A DNA stretch of 64,000 nt from a bacterium (GTDB taxonomy: Bacteria > Hinthialibacterota > Hinthialibacteria > Hinthialibacterales > Hinthialibacteraceae): contig CAXXMV010000008.1 of assembly GCA_963662285.2 (NCBI GenBank), positions 64,001 through 128,000 of the forward strand, read 5' to 3'. Shown here piece after piece: positions 10,930-23,268 of the stretch (the first letter of the stretch is position 1; each line of letters begins with the position of its first letter). The translations under genes and the position numbers were made by a program. The notes under the pieces are model-generated. The model searched no databases, was not told the origin of the DNA, and worked only from the letters and a program-made list of their open reading frames with translations.

Positions 10930-12270
10930 CTACAATTCCCACCCGGAACGGTAATGCGGCGTTAGATGAGCATTTGCTTTGGGGTTATTTTTGAACTGCA
11001 TCCCGGCTGCGTTCCACTCCAGTTTCTCTCCATCAAACACGGTAGCGATGACGCCCAGTAGAGCCATTTCGGTTAACGGGCCGCCGTATTCGAAAGTTGA
11101 ACTGGCAGGTTTGCCGTCTTTGCAGGCGCGAATCCAATCGTTGTGGTGTCCGTTTTTGATCCTTGGAATAATCTCGGCAGGTCTTTTATATTCATCACTG
11201 CGGGATTTAGGAAGAATCATGGCGCCGCCTCCGCCATGCGAGCCATGTAGGATCGTACCTTTTTCACCGATCAAAATGGCGCCCGCTTTGGCATTCCATT
11301 CACTCAATTCGATTCCTTGCAATTGGGGAAGATCAACTTTTTTACCATAGGTCCAGGTTACTTTGACCGGCGCCATATTTTCCCGCGCCGCAAATTGGTA
11401 TTCAATATCTGAACAAAGCGGAAACCGTTCGGGCGAATAGTCGCCGCAGCCGTTTTTGGCGATGATCGATTGAGGCGCCTGCAATTTCAGCGCCCAGAAA
11501 GTTGGATCGAGAATATGGCATACCCAATCGCCTAATACTCCGGTTCCGAAGTCAGCCCAACTGCGCCAGATGCCAGGCAGATAGCAGGGATTATAGGGGC
11601 GGTACGGCGCAGGTCCTAACCATAAATCCCAATCCAGCGTATCGGGAATCTTGGGCGTTTCGGTGGGACGGGGCTTACCGTTGCCATAAGGACTGGTGTA
11701 CCAGGCATGAACCTCTTTGACCTGACCGATAGCGCCATCCCATATCCATTCGCATATCTTGCGGATATCACCATCTGAATGCCCCTGGTTGCCCAGTTGA
11801 GTCTGCACCTTGTTTTCCCGCGCCGCTTTCATCAAAGCGCGGACTTCGTAGATGGTATGCGCCAGTGGCTTTTCGACGTAGACATGCTTGCCACGTTTGA
11901 TGGCGTTCATGGCGGCTACAGTGTGAAAGTGATCCGGCGTACTTACTATTACCGCGTCGATGTCTTTCTGTTTGTCGAGCATTACGCGGAAATCGTGATA
12001 CTTATTGGCTCGTTCATACTTTTGCAGCGACTTCTGCGCTCTATCTTGATCCACGTCGCACAAGGCCACGATATTTTGGTGATCCATTTTACTGAGGTTA
12101 TGCCCGCCGCGTCCCGCAATGCCAATTGCGGCGATATTCAATTTGTCGCTTGGCGCAGCTGAGGCGCCCCGGCCCAGAATTTCCGGACCAACTATCATAA
12201 AAGCGGATGACGCCAGCGCAGTTCGTTTTACAAAATCACGCCGGGTTACTTGCTGTTTCGTTTTTAACAT
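10930..12270 (-). CDS. Tat-exported Gfo/Idh/MocA oxidoreductase
   Basis: TRRDFVK, Rossmann IGIAGRG, TPDH.H, VEKPLAH and WDLWLGPAP motifs. Confidence 0.92.
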   Translation of the reverse strand: MLKTKQQVTRRDFVKRTALASSAFMIVGPEILGRGASAAPSDKLNIAAIGIAGRGGHNLSKMDHQNIVALCDVDQDRAQKSLQKYERANKYHDFRVMLDKQKDIDAVIVSTPDHFHTVAAMNAIKRGKHVYVEKPLAHTIYEVRALMKAARENKVQTQLGNQGHSDGDIRKICEWIWDGAIGQVKEVHAWYTSPYGNGKPRPTETPKIPDTLDWDLWLGPAPYRPYNPCYLPGIWRSWADFGTGVLGDWVCHILDPTFWALKLQAPQSIIAKNGCGDYSPERFPLCSDIEYQFAARENMAPVKVTWTYGKKVDLPQLQGIELSEWNAKAGAILIGEKGTILHGSHGGGGAMILPKSRSDEYKRPAEIIPRIKNGHHNDWIRACKDGKPASSTFEYGGPLTEMALLGVIATVFDGEKLEWNAAGMQFKNNPKANAHLTPHYRSGWEL

Positions 12271-12296
12271 TTCATTGCTCCTATTATGATGTACTA

Positions 12297-13778
12297 TTAG
12301 AAATATTTCTTAATAATCCAATCGGGCTGCCATTTATCCGGCTTACGTTCATGTCCGGTCAGGTCTATCTCTTTTTTATCTGGATTAGCGACGCCGAGAG
12401 GCAAGTCATCGCCGGATTCCTTCTGCCATTTCTTAAGCAGATTCATCATCTTTTCTACTTGCGCCGCATATTCGGGTTCATTGGCCAGGTTATACAATTC
12501 GTAAGGGTCATCTTTCAGATTGAATAACTGGGTATGGTTGATTCTAGGATAACGAATCAGTTTCCACTGATCGTCTCGGACTGCCCGTTGAATTTTGCAG
12601 TAAGAAGTAAAGACGGTATCGCGCACTTTTTTCTGCTTGCCTTGCCAAATTTGACTCAAATTCTTGCCATCAACATCACTTGGCGTATCAACTCCGGTCA
12701 TGGAGCATAAAGTCGGGAAGATATCCAGCAGATAAGAGAAAGCCTGAGTCGAGCCGCCTTTGGGGATGCCAGGGCCGGAAAATATCAGCGGACATCCCAT
12801 GCTGTGTTCATAGACATTCTGCTTGCCTAGAAGACCGTGGCTGCCGACCGCCAGACCATGATCGGCGGCGTAGACGATGATGGTGTTATCAGCCTGACCA
12901 GTGCGTTTCAGAGCGTCGAGTACGCGCCCGATCTGCACGTCCAAATGAGTAATCAGTCCGTAATACTCGGCCAACTGGTCGCGGATCATCTCTTCGGTGC
13001 GCGGCCAGGCGCCCAGGTTTTCGTCGCGCAATACCATCTGACCATTATCGAATGGATGCTGAGGCTTAAAATTAAAGGGCAGCGGGGGACGTTTTTTGTA
13101 ATACATCTCACGGTAATCCGTGGGTGGGTTGCGTGGATCATGGGGAGCGGTAAAAGCAACATAGGCGTAGAAAGGTTTTTCATTATCATGATTCTCGATA
13201 AACTCGATGGCCGAGTTGGCGAAGATTTCGCTGGAATAGCCATCGCCCGTGCGTTTGTTCACCACTTTTCCATCAGGAGAAAGGTCTACTACCGGAACTC
13301 TGGGATGATCCGACATCCCGCCGAACATGATAGTCTTACCTTTTTGGAAACCGCGCTTAAACGATTCCTGCTGATTATGCCATTTCCCGGTTCCAAAGGT
13401 GGTATACCCGTTCTCTTGGAAAATCTCCGGCATTATTCTGGTATCAGATAAATCATGCTTAATATTGAAATAGATTTTACCGCTGTTAATCATGGCCCGG
13501 CTGGGGATGCAAACCGCACCGCTATTTGAACCGAAGCAATAATTTCTGCGGAAACAGAATCCATTTTCAACCAGGCCATCAATATTGGGAGTATGAATAT
13601 AAGGATTGCCAAAAGCGCCGATTGAATCAGGCCGCTGATCATCCGCTAACAGAAAGAGAACATTCGGTCTCTTCTGTGATTTTGTCCTGGCAAAAGCCTG
13701 GCCGGGCAAGGCGGCGGCGCCAGCGCCCAGCGCGCATGTCTGTAGAAACCCCCGTCTTGAAACATTGTTTCGATTCAT
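12297..13778 (-). CDS. Tat-exported Cys-type sulfatase
   Basis: SRRGFL, PNVLFLLADD, CIPSRA, GKWH, DHG and GKQN motifs. Confidence 0.93.
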   Translation of the reverse strand: MNRNNVSRRGFLQTCALGAGAAALPGQAFARTKSQKRPNVLFLLADDQRPDSIGAFGNPYIHTPNIDGLVENGFCFRRNYCFGSNSGAVCIPSRAMINSGKIYFNIKHDLSDTRIMPEIFQENGYTTFGTGKWHNQQESFKRGFQKGKTIMFGGMSDHPRVPVVDLSPDGKVVNKRTGDGYSSEIFANSAIEFIENHDNEKPFYAYVAFTAPHDPRNPPTDYREMYYKKRPPLPFNFKPQHPFDNGQMVLRDENLGAWPRTEEMIRDQLAEYYGLITHLDVQIGRVLDALKRTGQADNTIIVYAADHGLAVGSHGLLGKQNVYEHSMGCPLIFSGPGIPKGGSTQAFSYLLDIFPTLCSMTGVDTPSDVDGKNLSQIWQGKQKKVRDTVFTSYCKIQRAVRDDQWKLIRYPRINHTQLFNLKDDPYELYNLANEPEYAAQVEKMMNLLKKWQKESGDDLPLGVANPDKKEIDLTGHERKPDKWQPDWIIKKYF

Positions 13779-14000
13779 AATAAAATCCCCTTATCCATAA
13801 TCGTGCTTTTTATAAAGGTTAAATCAAATAATTCTTATCCGATAGGGTAAAGGTAGGTGTGTTTATGGATCGTAAAGTATCAAAGCATTATACGATACAG
13901 AAATCATCTATTCGATTCTTTAGAATCATCTATTTAATCCCAGCAAGATCCGGGTTGCGGGGAGATATTTACTATCATCAAGAAAATATTAAAATTTTAC

Positions 14001-14051
14001 TTGCATTTTTTCTTATATTAGAATATACTTATATAAGCAATATGATATATA
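14001..14051 (+). promoter_or_regulatory. sigma70 promoter with overlapping AT-rich palindrome (candidate ArsR operator)
   Basis: TTGCAT (14001)-17nt-TATACT (14024), overlapped by the palindrome CTTATATAAG and the imperfect repeat TATAT..ATATA. Confidence 0.6.
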
Positions 14052-14082
14052 CTAAACGCCGCAAGAAATAAGGAGAATTGAA

Positions 14083-14283
14083 ATGTTAGATACAACGAAG
14101 GAAAAAATCGATTCTCAGGAACCTCTGGAACCTCACAAGCCAGCTCGACCGATGATGGTGGTAATGGACGATAAGGGAGAACGATGGTTGTGCGACAGCG
14201 ACCGCAGTATCAATCCCAAAAGTGATCTATCCAAGCAAGGATGTTGGAATTGCGGAGAATTGGCTTTCACCCGAAACGATTGA
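14083..14283 (+). CDS. small Cys-containing hypothetical protein (66 aa)
   Basis: SD AAGGAG. Contains WLCD and GCWNC (CxxC). Confidence 0.7.
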   Translation: MLDTTKEKIDSQEPLEPHKPARPMMVVMDDKGERWLCDSDRSINPKSDLSKQGCWNCGELAFTRND

Positions 14284-14374
14284 TGATGTGAGTAAGTGTT
14301 TGATTCAAAAGGATATCACACAACCAAATAAGTTGTGATATCAGACAATGAACGTTGCTTGAAGGAGAATTATC

Positions 14375-14539
14375 ATGAAAAAAATTACTATGACTCTAAT
14401 CTGTCTATCATTTGTTGTGGCTCTTGTAACCAGTTGCGCATCTACAGGAACAGGGCATAAAACAGCGAGGCTTTTGCAAATGGATCAAGGATCCAGAGTT
14501 CAAAGTATGGAAATTACCACCGAATCAATGATATACTGA
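14375..14539 (+). CDS. small lipoprotein (54 aa, below ORF-track cutoff)
   Basis: SD GAAGGAG. MKKITMTLICLSFVVALVTSC has a basic N-terminus, hydrophobic core and lipobox-like VTSC. TGA at 14537-14539. Confidence 0.6.
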   Translation: MKKITMTLICLSFVVALVTSCASTGTGHKTARLLQMDQGSRVQSMEITTESMIY

Positions 14540-14631
14540 AATGACGCATCAATGTATATTCTCAAATAGGTTTTACCGGTTTTCTGTTGTCATCGCTGCG
14601 TTTTCTTGTAGAATTTGTGCCAATTATAGAC

Positions 14632-14671
14632 TTGAAAGATAATCTACTTTTGGAAGTAGATTATCTTTCAA
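14632..14671. other. perfect 18-bp inverted repeat (hairpin or operator)
   Basis: ttgaaagataatctactt-ttgg-aagtagattatctttcaa. Confidence 0.85.
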
Positions 14672-14747
14672 TGTCGTAAATTGAAATTGGACATTTGTTT
14701 GTATACAGTTTTCACGAACATATTTTCTTTACAAATTAGGATGAATT

Positions 14748-15113
14748 ATGAAATCAATAATCGAACATCCGGATTGGGAAGTCATGGCGTCCGTGCTGCG
14801 TTCCATCAGCCATCCCATTCGCCTCATGATTTTGAACGAATTGGCGCAAGGCGCGAAATGCGTGCGCGACGTGCAAGAACTATTTGATATTTCTCAGCCA
14901 AATCTCTCGCAGCATTTGAACGCCTTAAAGAACGCCGGTTTAATCGGAAATCACTCGGACGGTTCTTTGAGGTGTTATTACCTGATCCGGCCCACGTTGG
15001 TTAAGACACTGTTGGAAGAATTTTCTAAACCCCATCCTGTTGAATTGAGGCCTAAAGAGACCGTTGTAAAGGAAGTACAGCAGAACCAAAAGAAAAAAGT
15101 TCTTTCCGCTTAA
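14748..15113 (+). CDS. ArsR/SmtB family transcriptional regulator
   Basis: SHPIRLMIL, KCVRD, SQPNLSQHL..LKNAGLI and RCYYL motifs. Confidence 0.92.
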   Translation: MKSIIEHPDWEVMASVLRSISHPIRLMILNELAQGAKCVRDVQELFDISQPNLSQHLNALKNAGLIGNHSDGSLRCYYLIRPTLVKTLLEEFSKPHPVELRPKETVVKEVQQNQKKKVLSA

Positions 15114-15141
15114 GATCACTATCTCTACAGAGGATAAAACC

Positions 15142-16062
15142 ATGAAACGCCGAACCATACTCAGCGTCGTAGGCGCCCTATTGCTTGGATCCAGAAAAGC
15201 CAAGGCGAACAAAGAAAAGAATGACTGTGAAAAAATCGATGAATACGGTTGCCTGGTGGATACAACTCTCTGCATCGGTTGTCGGGAATGCGAGAAAGCA
15301 TGCAATCTTTCGAATGAACTGACTCCTCAAACGACGGAGTTTTCAGATACCTCTGTTTTTGAAGCGCAGCGCAGACCAGACGCCAACCATTTTACAGTGG
15401 TCAACCGCCATTCCGGTTCACCGTCACCTTCACAGGGAAAACTCGCGGAGACCTTTATCAAGGTGCAATGCATGCATTGTCAGGAACCCGCCTGCGTGTC
15501 TGCTTGCATAGTCGGCGCATTACAAAAAACGTCACAAGGATCGGTGATATACGATGCGGACCGATGCATTGGGTGCCGTTATTGCATGGTAGCCTGTCCC
15601 TTTCAGATACCAGCCTACGAATATGACGATCCGATTGCTCCTCGCGTACGGAAATGCAATTTCTGTTTCGAGAGAGTTCAAGAAGGAGGAAAGCCCGCAT
15701 GTGTGGAAGCCTGTCCGAGAGAGGCGATTATCTTTGGCAAGCGCAGCGATTTGATCGCTCTTGCCAAAAAAAAGATTCGAGCCAAACCGGGTCGATATCT
15801 CGAACACATTTATGGAGAAAAAGAGGTAGGCGGGACATCGTGGTTATATCTGACCGGTCGTCCACCGGAAAAACTGGGGATGCCGGTATTTGATGAAAAA
15901 GCGCCCCCTCAATTAACCGAAAGCATCCAGCATGGAATATTCAAATACGGTTTGCCTCCGGTGGCTCTGTATGGATTTTTGGGAGGGATCATGTGGTTTA
16001 CCAATCGAAAGAATCACGCCGCGAACGAAGACGGCAACGCCCCATCGGAGGGACAAGAATGA
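15142..16062 (+). CDS. HybA/HmcB/PsrB-like 4x[4Fe-4S] ferredoxin subunit, Tat signal, C-terminal membrane anchor
   Basis: KRRTIL. Four Cys groups (CIGCRECEKAC, CMHCQEPACVSAC, CIGCRYCMVAC, CNFC..PACVEAC). IYGEKEVGGTSWLYL as in HybA. Confidence 0.92.
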   Translation: MKRRTILSVVGALLLGSRKAKANKEKNDCEKIDEYGCLVDTTLCIGCRECEKACNLSNELTPQTTEFSDTSVFEAQRRPDANHFTVVNRHSGSPSPSQGKLAETFIKVQCMHCQEPACVSACIVGALQKTSQGSVIYDADRCIGCRYCMVACPFQIPAYEYDDPIAPRVRKCNFCFERVQEGGKPACVEACPREAIIFGKRSDLIALAKKKIRAKPGRYLEHIYGEKEVGGTSWLYLTGRPPEKLGMPVFDEKAPPQLTESIQHGIFKYGLPPVALYGFLGGIMWFTNRKNHAANEDGNAPSEGQE

Positions 16063-19000
16063 ACGATGCATCTCTGCACGCACCTTTGAAACGCCCATTT
16101 TTCACTCCCGGAGTGTTAGTATTAATCACACTCATGACCATAGGAGCATGCTTCGCAGCAGCACGATTCTTCTTTGGATTAGGAGCGATAACCAACTTGG
16201 ATAACCAACATCCCTGGGGCATTTGGATCGCGATCGACGTAGCATCCGGCGTTGCGCTAGCGGCGGGAGGCTTCACGACAGCGGCTTTGGTCTACGTATT
16301 CAACCACAAGCACTTTCATCAGATCGTCCGTCCCGCTCTCTTGACAGCTTTTTTAGGTTATCTCTTCGTATCGATCGGTTTGATGGCAGACCTGGGAAAG
16401 TATTACAACATTTGGCATCCCATGGTTTTCTGGCAAGGCAACTCAGTGCTGTTTGAAGTTGGCATTTGCGTAATGACCTATTTAACCGTCTTATCGATTG
16501 AATTCTTACCGACTGTGTTGGAAAGTGTTCGCCATCACATTAATCAGGGAAGTGCTTTGAAGCCATTTTTAGAATCGATGAAAAAGCCCGCCGACGTTCT
16601 ACATCAGAAATTGGAAAAAGTAATGCCTGCTTTTATACTGGCGGGTGTAGTACTATCATGCATGCATCAGTCGTCCCTTGGCGCCCTAATGTTAATCGCG
16701 CCGTCCAAACTCAATCCATTATGGTTTACACCCATCCTTCCTCTTCTATTTTTAACATCAGCGGTGATGGTGGGATTTCCCATGGTAATTTTCGAATCCC
16801 TTATTGCATCTCGTTCATTTCGCCGTAAACCTGAAATGGATGTTCTTTCTCCCCTCGCCCGTTTCATTCCATATTTATTGGGGATCTATTTGATTTTGAA
16901 AATGGGCGATCTGCTCATTCGTCAACCATGGTCATCCTTGCGTCTCGATACGGATAGCGTATCTTTTATTGTTGAGATCGTTATAGGCGTCGCAGTTCCC
17001 CTGATTCTATTAGTCATTTCCAAAACATACAAATCAACCACAGGACTCTTCGTTGCGTCGTCATTGATTTTATTCGGCGTGGTTCTCAATCGCATCAACG
17101 TCTTTCTTGTGGGCTACAATCCCCCTTATGCGGAAAAATCGTATTTCCCTTCAATAGGTGAAATCGTAATTACGGCTGGATTGATTTCAGCTATTCTCTT
17201 CTTTTACCGGTTATTCGTTACCTTGTTCCCCGTACTTCCAGCGAATCAACCTTCCAGCGCAGGTTCAAATAAAACGGATCCTTCGAAAAAACAGCGAGCG
17301 GGCGTCTTCTCATCAAATACAAAAAGCATAGCACTTTCCACATTCTTGCTAGCTCTTCTTCACTCCCTCCCGCTCTCTGTTTTTTCCGATTCCATAGAAA
17401 AAATAGATTCCATGCCCTCGCTATTGATCCTTGACCATTCATCAAACGAATGGAATGAAGATAGTTATGGAACCGTTCGGTTCATGCATAAAAAACACGC
17501 AGTTCTGGAGAGCGGAGACTGTACGGTTTGCCATCACCGTGCGCCGGTATCAGTAAATGACTACGTTGGACAATCCATCTCTCGCAACGATCTCTCCCAC
17601 ATCGAACCAGTCGCGTGCCGAACTTGTCATTCATCTCCCGCTCAACCAGACGCGATCTTACGCCCCGGACTAAAAGGCGCATTGCATCAACGATGCATCG
17701 ACTGTCACGTCGAGAGAGATTCGGGACCGCAGACGTGTATGTCCTGTCACCGGCGCAACGTTCCCAACCACCAATCCCTTATTTCACTTACGGACGCAAC
17801 GAAGCCCCAAGAGATCACTGCTCAGTGCCTTTCGTGTCATCCGGCTGTCGGCGAATCGGTCTTGCATTCCGCTCATTGGAAATGGGCCGGACTTTCTCCC
17901 AATACGCACGGGCATGAACATCGAAACGATCTAGGGAAAAAACAGGTCATTAACAATTACTGCATTCACGTAGGTTCGAACCTGGAACGCTGCACGATGT
18001 GTCACATCGGGTACGGCTGGAAAGACGACTCGTTCGATTTCAGCGATGCGGGAAATATCGACTGCTTAATTTGTCACGATACGACAGGAATGTATAAAAA
18101 AGCGCCTCCCGGAGCCGGTTATCCCGTGGAAGGAATCGATTTGAACACTGTCGCCAAGAACGTCGGCCATCCCGATAGGGATAATTGCGGCGCATGCCAT
18201 TTTTACGGCGGGGGCGGCGACGGCGTCAAGCATGGCGACATGGATTCTTCGTTAAGCCATCCGTCACCCGAATTAGACGTTCACATGGGAAAACTAGGAT
18301 TTCTCTGTCAGGACTGTCATGTGACGGAAAGCCATCAGATCGCTGGCGCCTGCCAGGCAATACCGGCGCAGGAGGGTCGGGTTTCTTGCGAGAATTGCCA
18401 CACGTCTAAACCACACAATGGTTCGAATTGGTTAAATCAGCACTTAAACGATCATTCGGAATCGTTAGCCTGCCAAACCTGCCATATCCCCCAATTCGCC
18501 CGAGGAAATCCCACCAAGATGGAATGGGATTGGTCGCAAGCCGGACAGGATAGACCGGAAGAAAACGATTCGCTTGGGAAACCTGGTTTTGCGAAGATGA
18601 AAGGTTCTTTTATTTGGGGAAAAAACGTATCCCCTTCCTATATCTGGGATAACGGTAAAAACGAACGATACGTATTAGGTGATCGAATTGCGGAAAATAG
18701 TATTACGGTATTGAATCGGCCCCTTGGCGATATCAGTGATCCCAAGGCCAGGATCGCGCCTTTCAAGATTCACAAAGCCACGCAAATCAGCGACGCTGTT
18801 CACAAATACCTTATTGTTCCCAATCTATGGAAAGGCTATTGGAAACACTACGATTGGGATCAGGCGTCTAAAGACGGCATGAAAAGCGTTGGTTTGGAAT
18901 ACTCTGGCAAATATGAGTTCGTACAGACGTCTATGTACTGGAAAATCAACCACCAAGTTGCGCCGAAGGAAAAAGCCCTATCCTGCTATCAGTGTCACGA

Positions 19001-19229
19001 ATCGTCTTCAACCTGCTTTTCCTGCCATAATTCATTATCGAATGAGCGCAAAGAACAAATGCTCAAAGTAGACGACGAACTTCATCTGAACGCGCAACAG
19101 ATGATAGAATTTCCCTTTGAGAAGTTAGGCTACAAGGGCGATCCCATTCATTCCTGTTCCAGGTCCAAGAAATTTGAAAAAGAACCAATATCCTTGCAGT
19201 TACTTGATAAAAGCGGCTGGGAAGAATAA
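16059..19229 (+). CDS. fusion: NrfD/HybB membrane subunit + class III tetraheme cytochrome c + OTR-like octaheme cytochrome (13 CxxCH)
   Basis: ATGA overlap with the upstream gene. NrfD motifs PWGIWIAIDV, ALAAGGF, DLG, SVLFEV and MHQSSLG. c3 motifs F.HKKH, CTVCHH and LKGALHQRCIDCH. OTR motifs GK..INNYC, CHIGYG, CHFYGGGGDGVKHGD and CQTCHIP. Confidence 0.88.
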   Translation: MNDASLHAPLKRPFFTPGVLVLITLMTIGACFAAARFFFGLGAITNLDNQHPWGIWIAIDVASGVALAAGGFTTAALVYVFNHKHFHQIVRPALLTAFLGYLFVSIGLMADLGKYYNIWHPMVFWQGNSVLFEVGICVMTYLTVLSIEFLPTVLESVRHHINQGSALKPFLESMKKPADVLHQKLEKVMPAFILAGVVLSCMHQSSLGALMLIAPSKLNPLWFTPILPLLFLTSAVMVGFPMVIFESLIASRSFRRKPEMDVLSPLARFIPYLLGIYLILKMGDLLIRQPWSSLRLDTDSVSFIVEIVIGVAVPLILLVISKTYKSTTGLFVASSLILFGVVLNRINVFLVGYNPPYAEKSYFPSIGEIVITAGLISAILFFYRLFVTLFPVLPANQPSSAGSNKTDPSKKQRAGVFSSNTKSIALSTFLLALLHSLPLSVFSDSIEKIDSMPSLLILDHSSNEWNEDSYGTVRFMHKKHAVLESGDCTVCHHRAPVSVNDYVGQSISRNDLSHIEPVACRTCHSSPAQPDAILRPGLKGALHQRCIDCHVERDSGPQTCMSCHRRNVPNHQSLISLTDATKPQEITAQCLSCHPAVGESVLHSAHWKWAGLSPNTHGHEHRNDLGKKQVINNYCIHVGSNLERCTMCHIGYGWKDDSFDFSDAGNIDCLICHDTTGMYKKAPPGAGYPVEGIDLNTVAKNVGHPDRDNCGACHFYGGGGDGVKHGDMDSSLSHPSPELDVHMGKLGFLCQDCHVTESHQIAGACQAIPAQEGRVSCENCHTSKPHNGSNWLNQHLNDHSESLACQTCHIPQFARGNPTKMEWDWSQAGQDRPEENDSLGKPGFAKMKGSFIWGKNVSPSYIWDNGKNERYVLGDRIAENSITVLNRPLGDISDPKARIAPFKIHKATQISDAVHKYLIVPNLWKGYWKHYDWDQASKDGMKSVGLEYSGKYEFVQTSMYWKINHQVAPKEKALSCYQCHESSSTCFSCHNSLSNERKEQMLKVDDELHLNAQQMIEFPFEKLGYKGDPIHSCSRSKKFEKEPISLQLLDKSGWEE

Positions 19230-19245
19230 GAAAGGTTTATCAATC

Positions 19246-20409
19246 ATGAATCACATCGTCATTCTCGGAGGTGGATTTGCCGGAATCGAAGCCGCCATTC
19301 AATTAAGAAAAAAGAGTCAAAATGTAACGTTGATTTCAAATCGGGAATTTCTCTTCATTTATCCTCTTTCGATCTGGATTCCCGTGAAGCTTCAAAAATA
19401 TGAAAAAACCTGTCTATCTTTGCGTGATGTAGCGGCTAAATACCAGTTTAACTTTGTCATCGGGGACGTACAGAGTATCGACGCGAAAAATTCCAAGGTG
19501 ATGCTGAGAGATTCGGACTTATCATACGACTACTTAGTCATTGCTCTTGGGGGGAAAAAATACCCTATAAACGGCATCGAACACACCCATTCCATAGCCG
19601 ACGAACCTGAAAAAAGTCTCATTCTGCAACAAGGCATTGACCGATTGATTCAACAAGGACATGGACGAATAGCAGTCGGTTTCGGTGGAAATCCACATGA
19701 TTCGTCCGCTGTTCGCGGAGGTCCCGCTTTTGAATTGATATTCAATATTCATCGCTACTTAAAAAAGCGTAATCTACTCGATAAATTCGAGTTAACTTTC
19801 TTTGCTCCCATGCAGAATCCAGGTATTCGTTTGGGTGAAAAGGCATCGATAGAAGTCTTTCGTATGTTAAACCGCTTGAATATTACTTGCCACTTTGGGA
19901 ATAAGATCCATTCGTTCTCTGAAAAAACCATTCAATTCGACAATGGAAAGATATTGGAATTCGATCTCATCACCTTTATATCAGCACGCAACGGTCACCC
20001 GGTATTACAAAACTCGGATATACCGTTATCGGCTGCGGGATTTATAAAAATTGACGACCATTGCCAAGTTATTGGTTTTCCCCGCGTCTATGCAATCGGT
20101 GACACCGCCGATTTGCAGGGGCCGGATTGGAAAGCCAAGCAAGGTCACCTTGCCGAAGCCATGGCGAAAACAGCCGCCCATAATATTGTTGGTCAGATCA
20201 ATAACAACCCTAGAACGAAACAATATTTAGATGATATATCCATTATCTGTCTGATGGATATGGGAAATAGTGGGGCGCTGGTATATCGAAACCATCACCG
20301 CCAATGGCTGATTCCCCTGCCCATTATTGGCCACTGGTTTAAGCGTTTGTGGGGAAAATATTACGTTTACTCGAAATTAGGACGCATTCCCAGAATTCCA
20401 GGTTTATAA
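19246..20409 (+). CDS. sqr: sulfide:quinone oxidoreductase, type VI (SqrF)-like flavoprotein
   Basis: GGGFAG FAD motif, YP..IWIP, GFGGNP.DSSAVRGGPAFE, AIGD, GPDWKAKQGH, ICLMDMG and a C-terminal amphipathic helix. Confidence 0.8.
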   Translation: MNHIVILGGGFAGIEAAIQLRKKSQNVTLISNREFLFIYPLSIWIPVKLQKYEKTCLSLRDVAAKYQFNFVIGDVQSIDAKNSKVMLRDSDLSYDYLVIALGGKKYPINGIEHTHSIADEPEKSLILQQGIDRLIQQGHGRIAVGFGGNPHDSSAVRGGPAFELIFNIHRYLKKRNLLDKFELTFFAPMQNPGIRLGEKASIEVFRMLNRLNITCHFGNKIHSFSEKTIQFDNGKILEFDLITFISARNGHPVLQNSDIPLSAAGFIKIDDHCQVIGFPRVYAIGDTADLQGPDWKAKQGHLAEAMAKTAAHNIVGQINNNPRTKQYLDDISIICLMDMGNSGALVYRNHHRQWLIPLPIIGHWFKRLWGKYYVYSKLGRIPRIPGL

Positions 20410-20745
20410 CAAGATAAACGTATTCATGCTAAAATTAAATACTGACCGATTGGAATCCAACCCAAGTATCTCTAAAACAAAAGGCATTCCCCCGCAAAAT
20501 TCCATACTCAAAGTAAAAGGAGATGCGACTGTTGAGATTGTGGTGGAGAACTGGAAGGATTTGGTTGAGTAATAACGATACAGTTATATTCAAAAATCCA
20601 CTTCTCCTGATTCAGATCATCCGGGTTTTGTGAATTATCTAATATTTATTTTCAAAACCCTTTTTTTTATTTTAAATATCCCTCCACCCATTCACGTATC
20701 ATAATCATATATTAAATTTTTACCTAAAAAGGAGATGGAGAGAAA

Positions 20746-21429
20746 ATGTATAAATCAATAATTATTGGATGTTTAGCATTAGTAGTTGTTGCGACAGGCG
20801 CATTTGCCGGAGATTTATTGCTTCGCGGCGAGGTCGATATTCCCAATCAAGTGCAGATTGAATTCAGCATTCCTCTGGACGTGCTTGACGCAATCAAAAC
20901 CTCCGGCTTGAGCGCTATGGTAGATGATAAGGGCAAACTCAACCAACTGGTTGATTCCTTAATCGGAGACCTCGCCTCAATGAAAGGCCACAACCTTCTA
21001 GAAATCAACATGGATGGACATGGCATTGCGATTGCAGTGGATGAAGTGGATAAGGATAATCCCGAAGAAGCCAATTTCATCCAATTGAACATTGATCCAA
21101 CAGGAGATAACGAGCCGGAAATCAACCTTTGCATCCCTAAAGGAATCCTCTTCCTGGGCGCATTCATCGGCAACCAATTCGTCGAGAAGCATGGTGAAGA
21201 ATTCATGGACATGATCAAGCAGCAGATGATGATGAATTGCAAACCTCCCGCCGCTCCACAAGGCGGCATGGGTGAATGCAAAGATAAAAAATGCCCCAAA
21301 GATAATGACGATGGCGATGATGACGAAGATGACGATGATGATGAAATTCAGGAAAAGATTAAGAAAGATGTAAATCCCGAAAAAATCATCAAAGAAATCC
21401 TGCGCGAAGTCTTAAAAGAACTCAATTAA
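20746..21429 (+). CDS. secreted hypothetical protein with Asp-rich tract
   Basis: SD AGGAG/GGAG, signal peptide ending AFA, and DNDDGDDDEDDDDDE. Confidence 0.75.
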   Translation: MYKSIIIGCLALVVVATGAFAGDLLLRGEVDIPNQVQIEFSIPLDVLDAIKTSGLSAMVDDKGKLNQLVDSLIGDLASMKGHNLLEINMDGHGIAIAVDEVDKDNPEEANFIQLNIDPTGDNEPEINLCIPKGILFLGAFIGNQFVEKHGEEFMDMIKQQMMMNCKPPAAPQGGMGECKDKKCPKDNDDGDDDEDDDDDEIQEKIKKDVNPEKIIKEILREVLKELN

Positions 21430-21518: not shown

Positions 21519-22058
21519 TTACGTTGTTCTGGATTGAATGAATCTTGAGCAGAAATACTTATACGATTGGTTCTTGCTGACGGCAATATCATCTTTGAAG
21601 CATTTTAATAGTTCCAACTTGAAATCTATAAGGGAATCATATTTTTTGGGCTTAATTTCCTTAAAAGTATCTTTGAAAATGTTATCTGTATTGTCAAAAA
21701 AAGGAATTTTATTTCTCTTTGAATCAGCTTGATTAATCCCCGCTAAATACCAACTCTCGATCTCTTTACAGACCACTATGATTCGATCAGACGTCAAATA
21801 ATCTTTCTTATTGATAATTTTATCTTTTTTACTGGTGATGCATGGTTCATAATCTAAATCAGCCAGGAAAAGATAATCAGCCTTCATTTTTTTTATAATT
21901 CTTATAAAAAATTCCTTTATCTTATCCTTTTTCATTTTACTATATTTTATGATAGAGATCGACTGATATCTCGATTCTAATTTATTTTTGATTATTCGAT
22001 CAACAAACCGCTCATCATCATCGCCTTCCACCCAGATAAAGAGTCGTTTTGAACTCAT
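21519..22058 (-). CDS. TOPRIM-fold protein (DUF4276/DUF4435-like)
   Basis: Starts MSSKRLFIWVEGDDDE 1 nt after the ATPase stop. Has D.D (LADLD) and EIESWYLA. AT-rich. Confidence 0.7.
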   Translation of the reverse strand: MSSKRLFIWVEGDDDERFVDRIIKNKLESRYQSISIIKYSKMKKDKIKEFFIRIIKKMKADYLFLADLDYEPCITSKKDKIINKKDYLTSDRIIVVCKEIESWYLAGINQADSKRNKIPFFDNTDNIFKDTFKEIKPKKYDSLIDFKLELLKCFKDDIAVSKNQSYKYFCSRFIQSRTT

Positions 22059-22059
22059 T

Positions 22060-23268
22060 CTACACCCCCCATAAATCATCAGTATGGATTTCTCCCAATC
22101 CGATATCATTTTCCAGGAAATGATGCAGGTCTTCAATTTCCGACGGACAAGTTACATTGCTATAACCATCCTTCCCCCTTGATACCAATAACAGATCATT
22201 GATATCGGCATATTTAACCAATTCAGGATTATGGGTTGTAATCAAAATCTGTTTGTTTTCAGATGCATCTTTCATAAAACTCATCAGTTTTGACATGAGT
22301 TTGGGATGCATATTCCGTTCAGGTTCTTCAATTACGGTAAAACCATTTTTGCTGAAATACAGCGCAACTATCAAAGCCGCTATATTTATTGTTCCATCAG
22401 AAACCAATGAAGCAGGCATAAATTCTTTCTTAAAATAGTTTTCCTTTAATGTAAACAACAGAGATTGGTCAGCAAATTTCTCAACCCCCACATCTTCAAC
22501 AAATGGTAAGATATCATTGATGAGATTAGAAAATTTACGTTTTTTCTCCTTATCTCCAAACAAATGTTTCATGACTAAAGCAATATTACTTCCATCTTCC
22601 TCTAAATCTATTTTCCCTGATATCGGCGCTGCCTTCTTAGGTAACTTTGGATCAATGTCATAAAATGAGATATTATTCAGAAAATCTACTGAACCCAATA
22701 TAAAAAGAGTAACTCTTAAGAAAGTATCAGGTGAATATATACTATTTAAAATATTGAAAGGTGGATAATCAGCAATTGGAATATCATTATCATTTGAATC
22801 TTTTATATCTGAATTTATTTTAATTTTTTTTGAATCAGGAATCAATTCAATATACCCTCTACCAAGGATATTTTTATCATTAGACCAACGTTCACAATTC
22901 AACTTAATAAATTCTTGTTGTATAAAACAGCCTTTTTTTGTGAATTTAATTGAAAGATTATACTCGCAACTTTTAATATGAATCCAAATATTTTTTACTT
23001 TTATGTTCTTTTCAAAAATATACTCAAAAGAAATATCCAAATTTTCACTTGCGCCGATATTTATACTTCTTAAATACTCCACCCCACCTTGCATAGAGAC
23101 AGCGTTTTCCAATCCATGATTTGTTAAATCACGCAGGAATTTAAATATCTGAATAAAATTTGTCTTACCAGAAGCATTAGCCCCTACCAGCATGTTAAAT
23201 TTATTGAGACGGATATCTATATCCTTAAAACTTTTGAAATTGGATGCTTTAATTCTGGTAACAACCAT
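22060..23268 (-). CDS. ABC-type AAA_21/AAA_15 ATPase
   Basis: NFKSF, Walker A GANASGKT, signature SDGT, Walker B/D-loop IEEPERNMHP and H-loop TTHN. AT-rich. Confidence 0.88.
   Translation of the reverse strand: MVVTRIKASNFKSFKDIDIRLNKFNMLVGANASGKTNFIQIFKFLRDLTNHGLENAVSMQGGVEYLRSINIGASENLDISFEYIFEKNIKVKNIWIHIKSCEYNLSIKFTKKGCFIQQEFIKLNCERWSNDKNILGRGYIELIPDSKKIKINSDIKDSNDNDIPIADYPPFNILNSIYSPDTFLRVTLFILGSVDFLNNISFYDIDPKLPKKAAPISGKIDLEEDGSNIALVMKHLFGDKEKKRKFSNLINDILPFVEDVGVEKFADQSLLFTLKENYFKKEFMPASLVSDGTINIAALIVALYFSKNGFTVIEEPERNMHPKLMSKLMSFMKDASENKQILITTHNPELVKYADINDLLLVSRGKDGYSNVTCPSEIEDLHHFLENDIGLGEIHTDDLWGV

Follow-up and report, generated by a model that had tools for sequence, protein, structure and literature searches.

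A predicted quinone-coupled NrfD-c3-OTR fusion with ArsR and SqrF-like neighbours in a genome of the Hinthialibacterota

Which reaction would an octaheme cytochrome serve when it is built into the same polypeptide as a quinone-interacting membrane domain, and what do the genes around it contribute? This question is raised by a locus in a stretch of 64,000 nucleotides (nt) of bacterial DNA, in the following called the window (assembly GCA_963662285.2, contig CAXXMV010000008.1, positions 64,001 to 128,000; family Hinthialibacteraceae). According to the list of open reading frames (ORFs) of the window, six co-oriented genes occupy positions 14083-20409 on the + strand. They comprise two small ORFs (orfA and orfB), a gene for an ArsR-type regulator, a gene for an iron-sulfur (Fe-S) subunit, a fusion gene with NrfD, cytochrome c3 and octaheme tetrathionate reductase (OTR) parts, and a gene for a flavoprotein of the sulfide:quinone oxidoreductase (SQR) superfamily. 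All features described below lie on the + strand unless stated otherwise.

With moderate confidence we explain the locus as a two-subunit, menaquinone-coupled periplasmic multiheme oxidoreductase which likely reduces an oxidised sulfur anion with quinol, together with an ArsR repressor, accessory ORFs and an accessory flavoprotein. The HybB/HmcC-type NrfD domain would exchange electrons with the quinone pool, and a HmcB/HybA-like Fe-S protein, exported by the twin-arginine translocation (Tat) route and anchored by its tail, would pass them on. The tetraheme c3 module, tethered via the eleventh helix of the fusion, would act as a relay. At the OTR octaheme head the lysine-ligated heme would then turn over a small inorganic substrate, with tetrathionate as first candidate and sulfite or another sulfur oxyanion as alternatives. 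The ArsR protein encoded directly upstream would most likely be the repressor of the operon, while the flavoprotein, which is SqrF-like, and the conserved small orfA and orfB would be accessories of the window's lineage.

Anatomy of the Fe-S subunit and the NrfD-c3-OTR fusion

The Fe-S subunit (15142-16062, 306 amino acids) is of the HmcB/HybA-like, four-cluster type and predicted to be periplasmic. It has a Tat signal (MKRRTILS), 18 cysteines and a hydrophobic C-terminal tail. Besides a match to Fer4_11 it reaches 335.9 bits with the HmcB model (cut-off 420) and 262.7 bits with the HybA model (cut-off 263). The fusion gene follows at 16059-19229 and encodes 1056 amino acids, in which Pfam and NCBIfam models recognise, in this order, NrfD, c3/c7 and OTR domains.

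Residues 1-387 (16059-17219) form the NrfD domain (PF03916, 82 bits, cut-off 25.8). It is of the HybB/HmcC type with 358.2 bits for HybB (cut-off 450) and 304.1 bits for HmcC (cut-off 550). Ten helices are predicted within residues 19-387 by a simple hydropathy scale, not by a trained predictor. The quinone site of Escherichia coli HybB is listed in PMC8076601 as Asp58, Ser105, Asp109, Ser129, Glu133 and Ser190, with Arg329 in the middle of the membrane. D58, D109, S129, E133 and R329 are invariant in all seven aligned sequences, so that four of the six quinone-site residues are kept in the fusion, Ser105 being replaced by Gly and Ser190 occurring as Ala, Thr or Ser. The NrfD domains of six aligned fusions are 31-38% identical to HybB. 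A quinone site is predicted for this domain.

The NrfD domain is followed by a loop rich in K and R (residues 388-423, five K+R) and an eleventh transmembrane helix (residues 424-442; 17328-17384). In an alignment of 18 fusions, distant homologues have a Met and a signal-peptide-like stretch at the position of this helix. The helix thus looks like a signal anchor that was retained when a cytochrome gene became fused to the membrane domain, and the heme part should consequently face the periplasm. In the model of the full-length fusion, a helix is seen at residues 419-436 with low confidence (mean pLDDT 53, below 50 in the heme part).

Behind this helix lies a tetraheme c3-like module (residues ~465-566; 17451-17756) with CxxCH motifs at 488, 520, 546 and 560. 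It matches the C-terminal domain of HmcA/TmcA as well as the structures 1z1n, 1h29 and 3cao. The OTR octaheme module comprises residues 578-983 (17790-19007) with CxxCH at 590, 645, 669, 710, 750, 777, 805 and 976, and scores 539.9 bits with TIGR04315 (cut-off 375). Residues 581-983 align to 13-418 of the 443-residue 1sp3 chain (5e-136) with all eight CxxCH in register. G626-K627-K628 is aligned to the GKK of 1sp3 (55-57, counted in the alignment), which places Lys627 at the Lys56 position. A lysine at this position is described as ligand of the active-site heme of OTR (PMC12285233). The motif CxxCK is absent from the fusion. A thirteenth CxxCH (residues 986-990; 19014-19028) follows ten residues on, outside the 1sp3 alignment. 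Lys627 and all 13 CxxCH motifs are kept without exception in 18 diverse fusion proteins, and a cytochrome c synthase gene is present in the genome.

There is no gene for a NiFe hydrogenase or a molybdopterin subunit at the locus, as the preliminary description had noted. It had also proposed a two-subunit, quinone-linked module without such a partner, and considered pairing with a hydrogenase encoded elsewhere as the case that would speak against it. The domain content and a search of the genome (92.5% complete) support the proposal. With PF00374 a single NiFe large subunit was found, encoded on a different contig within a cluster of the cytoplasmic HoxEFUYH type, so pairing with a remote hydrogenase is not seen. 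Both molybdopterin matches of the genome are on other contigs as well. A periplasmic hydrogenase or formate dehydrogenase which could feed the complex was not found in this 92.5% complete genome.

Relatives of the fusion and their genomic surroundings

A word-indexed search returned 934 relatives of the fusion, and the architecture was read on the best 120 of these. NrfD and OTR C-terminal Pfam domains occur together in 119 of the best 120, in proteins of ~900-1120 amino acids. Labels among these relatives include Desulfobacterales, Desulfarculaceae, Acidobacteriota, Krumholzibacteriia and a Hinthialibacter-like metagenome-assembled genome. For the genomic context, 30 loci other than the window's own with a fused or split NrfD and OTR were available, two from the genome collection and 28 metagenomic. 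The Fe-S gene is located directly upstream of the fusion in 28 of them, and the contigs of the other two begin at the fusion. The fusion and its Fe-S partner are thus widespread, and the idea of a rare or local invention had to be given up. A scan of contigs with a single protein yielded mostly stand-alone OTR or NrfD genes, which were used as comparison set.

Within the window's phylum (35 genomes) the OTR fusion occurs only in the window's own genome, in a genome of a second genus (G012, locus L001; 80% identity) and in a more distant one (G005, locus L002; 60% identity). In a tree of 25 full-length fusions these three form a separate clade (support 100/99). Most other genomes of the phylum encode a HmcB-like/NrfD pair followed by a separate 13-heme cytochrome of ~385 amino acids. 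Variants of this arrangement were seen among the loci: in L048:583-3887, L050:305-3642, L053:339-3660 and L065:319-3618 the HmcB-like protein is itself fused to NrfD (704-720 amino acids, Tat signal) and a separate ~385-residue cytochrome with 13 CxxCH follows, while L049 and L052 have three separate genes. In five loci (L101, L117, L123, L137 and L144; e.g. L117:502-6734) the fusion gene is split into an NrfD part of 388 and a c3-OTR part of ~690-776 amino acids. Such split loci adjoin a gene for a ~699-residue 2Fe-2S and RACo protein, an odd partner for a periplasmic cytochrome complex.

The most frequent neighbourhood is a PhsA-like set, found after the fusion in 17 of 29 loci (L093:9305-14985; likewise L083, L090, L096, L106, L112, L134, L150, L154 and others). 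It consists of a small monoheme cytochrome, a molybdoenzyme with Tat signal, a TtrB/NrfC-like Fe-S protein, up to three rhodaneses and a TorD-like chaperone. The molybdoenzyme scores 566 bits with the PhsA model (cut-off 694), the next-best model reaching 252. No membrane anchor for it was found in those loci, and the NrfD fusion may serve as a shared anchor for this anchor-less enzyme. All 17 PhsA-type loci fall into one clade of the tree. A divergently oriented sigma-54 activator gene was found in 10 of the 20 loci with sufficient upstream DNA.

The 21 stand-alone OTR loci of the comparison set derive from several phyla. Genes for YeeE-type sulfur transporters, some fused to rhodanese, lie within 2.6 kb in 12 of them. 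In five, a neighbour has a cytochrome b561 domain, which in four cases is fused to a multiheme cytochrome c, and in three an ArsR gene is located directly upstream. A split YeeE-type transporter gene like those beside stand-alone OTRs also exists in the window's own genome, on another contig and unlinked to the OTR fusion (G000:C5:18850-19918; a 180-residue half, the rest in a 668-residue frame). No nitrogen-cycle gene was found at the window locus or at any of the 30 related fusion loci.

It is conceivable, though doubtful, that the Fe-S protein and the NrfD-c3-OTR fusion with its one additional heme represent the native quinone-wired form of OTR in many anaerobes and at the same time a membrane hub shared by different sulfur-redox partners, the regulated loop of the window included. 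If so, the fusion of the PhsA clade would anchor and feed a thiosulfate/polysulfide reductase together with its rhodaneses, and a single quinol dehydrogenase could support the stepwise conversion of tetrathionate to sulfide. In the window's lineage an SqrF-like flavoprotein poor in Cys would take the place of this partner, joined by two very small proteins, Cys-bearing or lipid-anchored, and controlled by a sensor of the ArsR type. Such a set would amount to a sulfur redox loop that is complete in itself and regulated, in a polysaccharide degrader rich in sulfatases.

The ArsR regulator, the flavoprotein and the small ORFs

The preliminary description had pointed to tight spacing from arsR to the SQR-like gene, which the coordinates and the homologue-supported ATG codons bear out: 28 nt between arsR and the Fe-S gene, -4 nt (an ATGA overlap) between the Fe-S gene and the fusion, and 16 nt between the fusion and the flavoprotein gene. 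The ATGs of the fusion (16059) and the flavoprotein (19246) coincide with the start points of homologues in alignments. Based on this spacing, the genes are presumably co-transcribed. An intrinsic terminator after the flavoprotein gene was not found, nor was any Rfam family in 13700-20800 at E-values up to 0.1.

In the second genus (L001) the arrangement recurs with a gap of 27 nt between arsR and the Fe-S gene and of -4 nt between the Fe-S gene and the fusion in the ORFs, and a tblastn match to the SQR-like protein starts 4 nt past the stop of the fusion. Elsewhere the linkage is rare. A profile of the flavoprotein family finds an SQR-like gene in one of the 29 other loci with at least 1300 nt downstream, the sole match being L001. 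Of the 22 loci that extend 600 nt or more upstream, one contains ArsR; a further case is the contig-end locus L075 (74% identity), where the order is a fragment of a divergent PAS/sigma-54 activator gene, arsR, orfA, orfB, Fe-S gene and fusion. The 60%-identical relative L002 has a TrmO-like gene upstream and lacks both ArsR and the flavoprotein; directly after its fusion a sulfatase gene is found (L002:9252-10715). The SQR-like gene is present in two of the 35 genomes of the phylum, in both beside the fusion. The proposed conservation of sqr and arsR with the complex therefore holds in the closest relatives (74-80% identity) but not in the family at large, and the two genes are, judged by their distribution, lineage-specific accessories.

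The ArsR/SmtB-family regulator (14748-15113, 121 amino acids; HTH_5 2e-14) has two cysteines, Cys38 and Cys76. It meets the generic ArsR subfamily model NF033788 with 71.2 bits (cut-off 55). With the BigR model NF040642 it scores only 46.3 bits (cut-off 155). The best solved relatives are 8qkf (2.9e-10), BigR 3pqj (1.5e-8) and SqrR 6o8k (7e-6). In BigR a Ser occupies the column of Cys38, and Cys38 and Cys76 are invariant in three close homologues only. The winged-helix fold of the ArsR/SmtB family, the two cysteines and the place at the head of a putative sulfur-redox operon are reminiscent of BigR, SqrR and SoxR/sHdrR. The window protein lacks a Cys in the C-terminal helix 5, which we take to be the position used in BigR and SqrR. 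Of the persulfide-sensing ArsR that had been suggested, the family assignment thus stands, while a sensor of the BigR/SqrR type is not supported and persulfide sensing as such is neither favoured nor contradicted. ArsR-type repressors that respond to sulfane sulfur do exist (PMC12423496, PMC10451225).

The flavoprotein (19246-20409, 387 amino acids) belongs to the SQR superfamily (Pyr_redox_2), and its best solved relatives are SQRs, with phmmer E-values from 2e-24 (Acidianus) over 1.6e-22 (Aquifex) to 1e-17. Its model (pLDDT 92.8) gives Foldseek TM values of 0.87-0.88 with bacterial SQRs (Aquifex 0.88) and of 0.79-0.80 with NDH-2. The SQR fold with the N-terminal Rossmann motif for binding of flavin adenine dinucleotide (FAD) is present. 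One C-terminal helix is located at residues 361-377 and a signal peptide is absent. The protein should for this reason sit on the cytoplasmic face of the membrane, where the quinone pool would be its only link to the periplasmic hemes.

The cysteine pattern deviates from SQR types I-V. In type III the catalytic pair is Cys159/Cys339 (PMC13047784). In the family of the window's flavoprotein Arg157 is invariant in 22 of 22 sequences where other SQR types have a Cys at ~160, whereas the second position is present as Cys335; the Cys pair of types I-V is thus incomplete, and the SQR_III_seleno model yields 93.5 bits (cut-off 525). An argument that the protein is not an SQR on account of this Arg was dropped, since type VI enzymes are reported with an unusual Cys pattern. 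This type is described in PMC9666304 as binding FAD via Cys121, with Val331 and Ile333 on either side of Cys332 and only one short helix at the terminus. Compared with these features as described for the Thiocapsa roseopersicina enzyme TrSqrF, the window protein looks like a type VI (SqrF-like) enzyme: I334-C335-L336 corresponds to V331-C332-I333, an aromatic residue and Trp369 are found on the terminal helix, and a Cys at ~160 is lacking in both (PMC9666304). I334-C335-L336 and W369 are invariant in the family alignment, and a Cys273 is present. The difference concerns the FAD-linking Cys, whose column contains the Cys of SVCEPE in the Acidianus enzyme. Ala118 occupies this column in the window and in L001; of the 22 family members, 19 have Cys there and one has Ser. 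Cys121 of TrSqrF is reportedly crucial for activity. The SqrF identity is hence backed by the type VI features and weakened by Ala118, and since the FAD-binding Cys is replaced, sulfide oxidation by this flavoprotein is unproven.

In another phylum the flavoprotein family was found in 32 of 301 genomes sampled. Its neighbours at 30 loci there are an OsmC-like gene (12 of 30), DUF134 and methyltransferase genes, or central-metabolism genes; neither OTR nor ArsR is found beside it at any of the 30. A four-gene unit of OsmC-like protein, flavoprotein, DUF134 and S-adenosylmethionine-dependent methyltransferase is seen at L172:1069-3841 and at L176, L177, L179 and L184-L188. Elsewhere, members of the SqrF-like family lie beside genes for an ATP-citrate-lyase-like protein, pyruvate:ferredoxin oxidoreductase or phosphotransacetylase.

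Ahead of arsR, the two small ORFs of the preliminary description are present and have homologues in relatives. orfA (14083-14283, 66 amino acids) encodes three Cys and a conserved C-terminus, RWLCD...CWNCGE(L/M)AFTRND, and is 68% (L001) and 58% (L075) identical to its tblastn homologues. No Pfam or NCBIfam family matches it, and an atlas search led only to unnamed clusters at 0.90 with low recognition. orfB (14375-14539, 54 amino acids) encodes a putative small lipoprotein, with a signal peptide and a lipobox-like ...VTSC read from the sequence. Its homologue in L075 is 51% identical, and no curated family was reached in Pfam or NCBIfam. As both recur in relatives, orfA and orfB are probably real genes.

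The consensus promoter claimed upstream exists as a promoter-like site TTTACT-17-TAGAAT (13996-14024, 9 of 12 matches), but it does not stand out: 13 such sites were found in 13700-20900, as against 14.7 +/- 4.1 in shuffled sequences. It is overlapped by an AT-rich palindrome upstream of orfA (14009-14040; 16-nt arms, 81% complementary), a candidate operator revealed by the inverted-repeat scan. A related core, CTTATAT(A/T)A, lies upstream of orfA in both L001 and L075, and this recurrence lends some independent support to a control site there. Upstream of arsR, a second promoter-like site (TTGTCA-16-TAGAAT, 10 of 12 matches) and a perfect 18-nt inverted repeat occupy 14587-14671. The arms of the repeat (14632-14649 and 14654-14671, 4-nt spacer) lie between this site and arsR. 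The repeat could be an operator or a hairpin of a 5' leader; it was not found at the equivalent place in L001. Sigma-54 control as in relatives was not transferred to the locus, where no -24/-12 site occurs on the + strand of 13780-15150 and the window-wide count is at chance.

Alternative readings, known systems and flanking genes

Electron flow from quinol to the substrate is favoured because OTR hemes act as reductases in vitro, because tetrathionate is a high-potential acceptor (+198 mV is quoted for the tetrathionate/thiosulfate couple in PMC8528874), and because no periplasmic hydrogenase or formate dehydrogenase was found in the genome. As to the substrate, sulfur is preferred because sulfur-handling neighbours recur at fused and stand-alone OTR loci and, moreover, because an acidobacterial otr is reported to be 36-fold up with tetrathionate in sediment microcosms (PMC8528874). 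The earlier proposal of a sulfur-compound or nitrite oxidoreductase is thereby narrowed: sulfur is better supported, from the contexts of relatives and not from the window locus itself, and nitrite and hydroxylamine stay in play.

Several points weigh against this explanation. A deletion of otr in Shewanella sp. ANA-3 is described as having no tetrathionate phenotype, nitrite and hydroxylamine give higher OTR activities in vitro, and sulfite reduction is put forward by the authors (PMC12949373). The closest studied kin of the NrfD domain, QrcD and HybB, are proposed to work as quinone reducers which take up cytoplasmic protons, and the reverse reaction would spend proton-motive force (PMC6303296). 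Eight of the 13 residues of the cytoplasm-side proton path of HybB are kept in the NrfD domain (R89, Y99, Y141, E148, E155, H184, S186 and S187 in HybB numbering). As all PhsA-type loci belong to a single clade, they count as one lineage and not as 17 cases, and the window's clade has neither PhsA nor rhodanese nor YeeE at the locus. Since the 60%-identical relative has neither the ArsR nor the SQR-like gene, the complex does not need them. The ArsRs at stand-alone OTR loci are only 19-27% identical to that of the window and share no Cys with it. Finally, the flavoprotein lacks the FAD-linking Cys.

Among the alternatives, the same complex working in the same direction on nitrite or hydroxylamine, for detoxification or as a fused NrfABCD analogue in ammonifying respiration, appears unlikely to us. 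OTRs reduce both compounds better than tetrathionate in vitro (PMC12949373, PMC4911364), Otr has been proposed as nitrite reductase of NrfA-less ammonifiers (PMC5276818, PMC6896113), and a lysine-ligated heme also occurs in NrfA-type enzymes (PMC12285233). This is opposed by the lack of nitrogen-cycle genes at all the fusion loci, by neighbours that are sulfur-related instead (PhsA-like proteins and rhodaneses, YeeE beside stand-alone OTRs) and by the response of otr to tetrathionate in microcosms (PMC8528874). Electrons might also run the other way, as in Hmc, Nhc, Qrc and hydrogenase 2, from a periplasmic low-potential donor via the hemes to menaquinone in an electrogenic reaction. Sulfide or polysulfide at the OTR heme or a soluble cytochrome at the extra heme would be the donor, and the SqrF-like protein a parallel route for sulfide. 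The ten-helix NrfD domain with its eight proton-path residues agrees with this, all the more as the HybB/HmcC group is proposed to prefer quinone reduction (PMC6303296). In addition, the conserved thirteenth heme could be a docking point, and two quinone-reducing sulfide oxidisers under one regulator would need a single signal only, sulfide. We nevertheless judge reverse flow to be improbable. The missing FAD-linking Cys of the flavoprotein and the missing periplasmic hydrogenase or formate dehydrogenase as feeder speak against it. The menaquinone potential is about -74 mV. Thiosulfate oxidation at the +198 mV couple (PMC8528874) cannot reduce menaquinone, and OTR-type lysine-ligated hemes are known as reductases (PMC12949373, PMC4911364).

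The remaining alternatives concern the tie between the complex and its neighbours. In the strongest form of such a tie, SQR would oxidise sulfide and reduce quinone, an S-S compound of the periplasm would serve the OTR complex for re-oxidation of the quinol, and an ArsR that senses persulfide would switch on both. The result would be a circuit dedicated to sulfide detoxification or sulfur respiration. Four tightly spaced genes that recur as a block in a second genus, an SQR-like gene that in the phylum occurs only beside the fusion (two of two carriers), an SQR-like fold (TM 0.88) with type VI hallmarks and the known sulfane-sulfur-responsive repressors (PMC12423496, PMC10451225) are consistent with this loop. 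We consider it doubtful, as the linkage is confined to close kin (one of 29 other loci), Ala118 stands where the type VI enzyme holds FAD via Cys121 (PMC9666304), the ArsR falls far below the BigR cut-off with a Ser opposite Cys38, and the flavoprotein family elsewhere keeps other company, with OTR at none of 30 loci. Moreover, sulfide and tetrathionate react abiotically and rarely coexist. At the other extreme, ArsR, orfA, orfB and the SQR-like protein would be mere co-inherited neighbours in two close genera with no functional tie. That the 60% relative and every fusion locus further removed lack them would fit, as would the differing order at L075 (arsR-orfA-orfB-FeS). Yet the gaps of 28 and 16 nt leave scant room for separate control, and L075 retains orfA and arsR beside the Fe-S and fusion genes although the order has changed there. 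Within the phylum no SQR-like gene was found away from the fusion, and ArsR genes recur at unrelated OTR loci. An entirely accidental association therefore seems very unlikely. We thus keep to a quinol-dependent reductase, probably for an oxidised sulfur anion, with lineage-specific accessories.

The proposed reductase has counterparts in several known systems. It resembles the OTR of Shewanella oneidensis (PDB 1SP3) in its eight CxxCH, the Lys56 position and a TIGR04315 score above cut-off. Shewanella OTR is a soluble periplasmic protein with a debated donor (PMC12949373), whereas the module of the window is the C-terminal part of a membrane protein with 11 predicted helices, with a c3 tetraheme module before it, a ninth CxxCH after it and a dedicated Fe-S partner. 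The Fe-S and NrfD parts are best matched by HmcB and HmcC/HybB, and the c3 module by the C-terminal domain of HmcA/TmcA, which recalls Hmc, Nhc and Ohc; the last of these is composed of an octaheme cytochrome, an Fe-S protein and a membrane subunit (PMC4641369). In contrast to these complexes, the cytochrome and the membrane subunit of the window form one polypeptide, no score of the window proteins with these models reaches its equivalog cut-off, HmcD/E/F-like genes are lacking, and the head is OTR-type with an open lysine-ligated heme and not a pure c3-type wire. HybA-HybB of E. coli hydrogenase 2 are similar in the ten helices, the quinone-site residues and the near-cut-off HybA score, but HybO/HybC are missing, and the fused cytochrome would be the partner in electron transfer. 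NrfABCD and MccACD follow the same plan, in which an NrfD-family subunit and a four-cluster Fe-S protein of the periplasm serve a multiheme cytochrome whose special heme is the site of catalysis. Nrf and Mcc are both listed among NrfD-containing complexes (PMC8076601), and the eight hemes of OTR and MccA are described as superimposable (PMC12949373). They differ by an 8-helix NrfD/MccD and separate polypeptides, whereas the window has ten helices in a fused protein; the NrfD and NrfC models give 23.6 and 101.6 bits with the window parts.

In the literature searched, no description of an NrfD-c3-OTR fusion was found. The words 'fused' and 'fusion' are both absent from the text of the NrfD review as available to us (PMC8076601), and the Otr of Thermosulfurimonas is reported with an adjacent, unfused membrane subunit (PMC4911364). 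Parts and logic are known, and the covalent NrfD-c3-OTR protein with its HmcB-like partner is abundant in databases under automatic names. The window copy is a member of this family with a lineage-specific accessory set, and any coupling of SQR and ArsR to the complex would be narrow. OTR-type cytochromes are annotated as 'tetrathionate reductases' in many environmental genomes, and their physiological role and electron donor are still treated as unsettled in a genetic study of 2026 (PMC12949373). The fusion would answer the donor question by construction, with the enzyme covalently tied to an NrfD quinone module and regularly accompanied by an Fe-S partner, and its varied, mostly sulfur-related neighbours narrow the search for the substrate. 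For a genome that otherwise resembles a glycan and sulfatase specialist, the locus would mean an additional, quinone-linked capacity for inorganic redox chemistry. The Fe-S subunit and the fusion represent a compact two-gene target for heterologous expression.

Some observations were made in the flanking regions. Downstream of the flavoprotein gene, 20746-21429 encodes a protein of 227 residues that has a signal peptide and, in its C-terminal third, runs of D/E which make this part very acidic. Neither Pfam nor NCBIfam assigns it to a family, and conservation at this place does not extend to L001. On the - strand, two overlapping ORFs (205 and 402 amino acids) follow at 21519-23268. Their G+C content is 27-29%, as against 39-55% in the surroundings, and the start of the 402-residue ORF resembles a P-loop ATPase (GANASGKTN). 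By appearance this pair is a horizontally acquired cassette, possibly a defence system. On the other side, genes for a sulfatase and for GFO/IDH/MocA oxidoreductases (10930-13778, - strand) belong to the surroundings of the redox locus.

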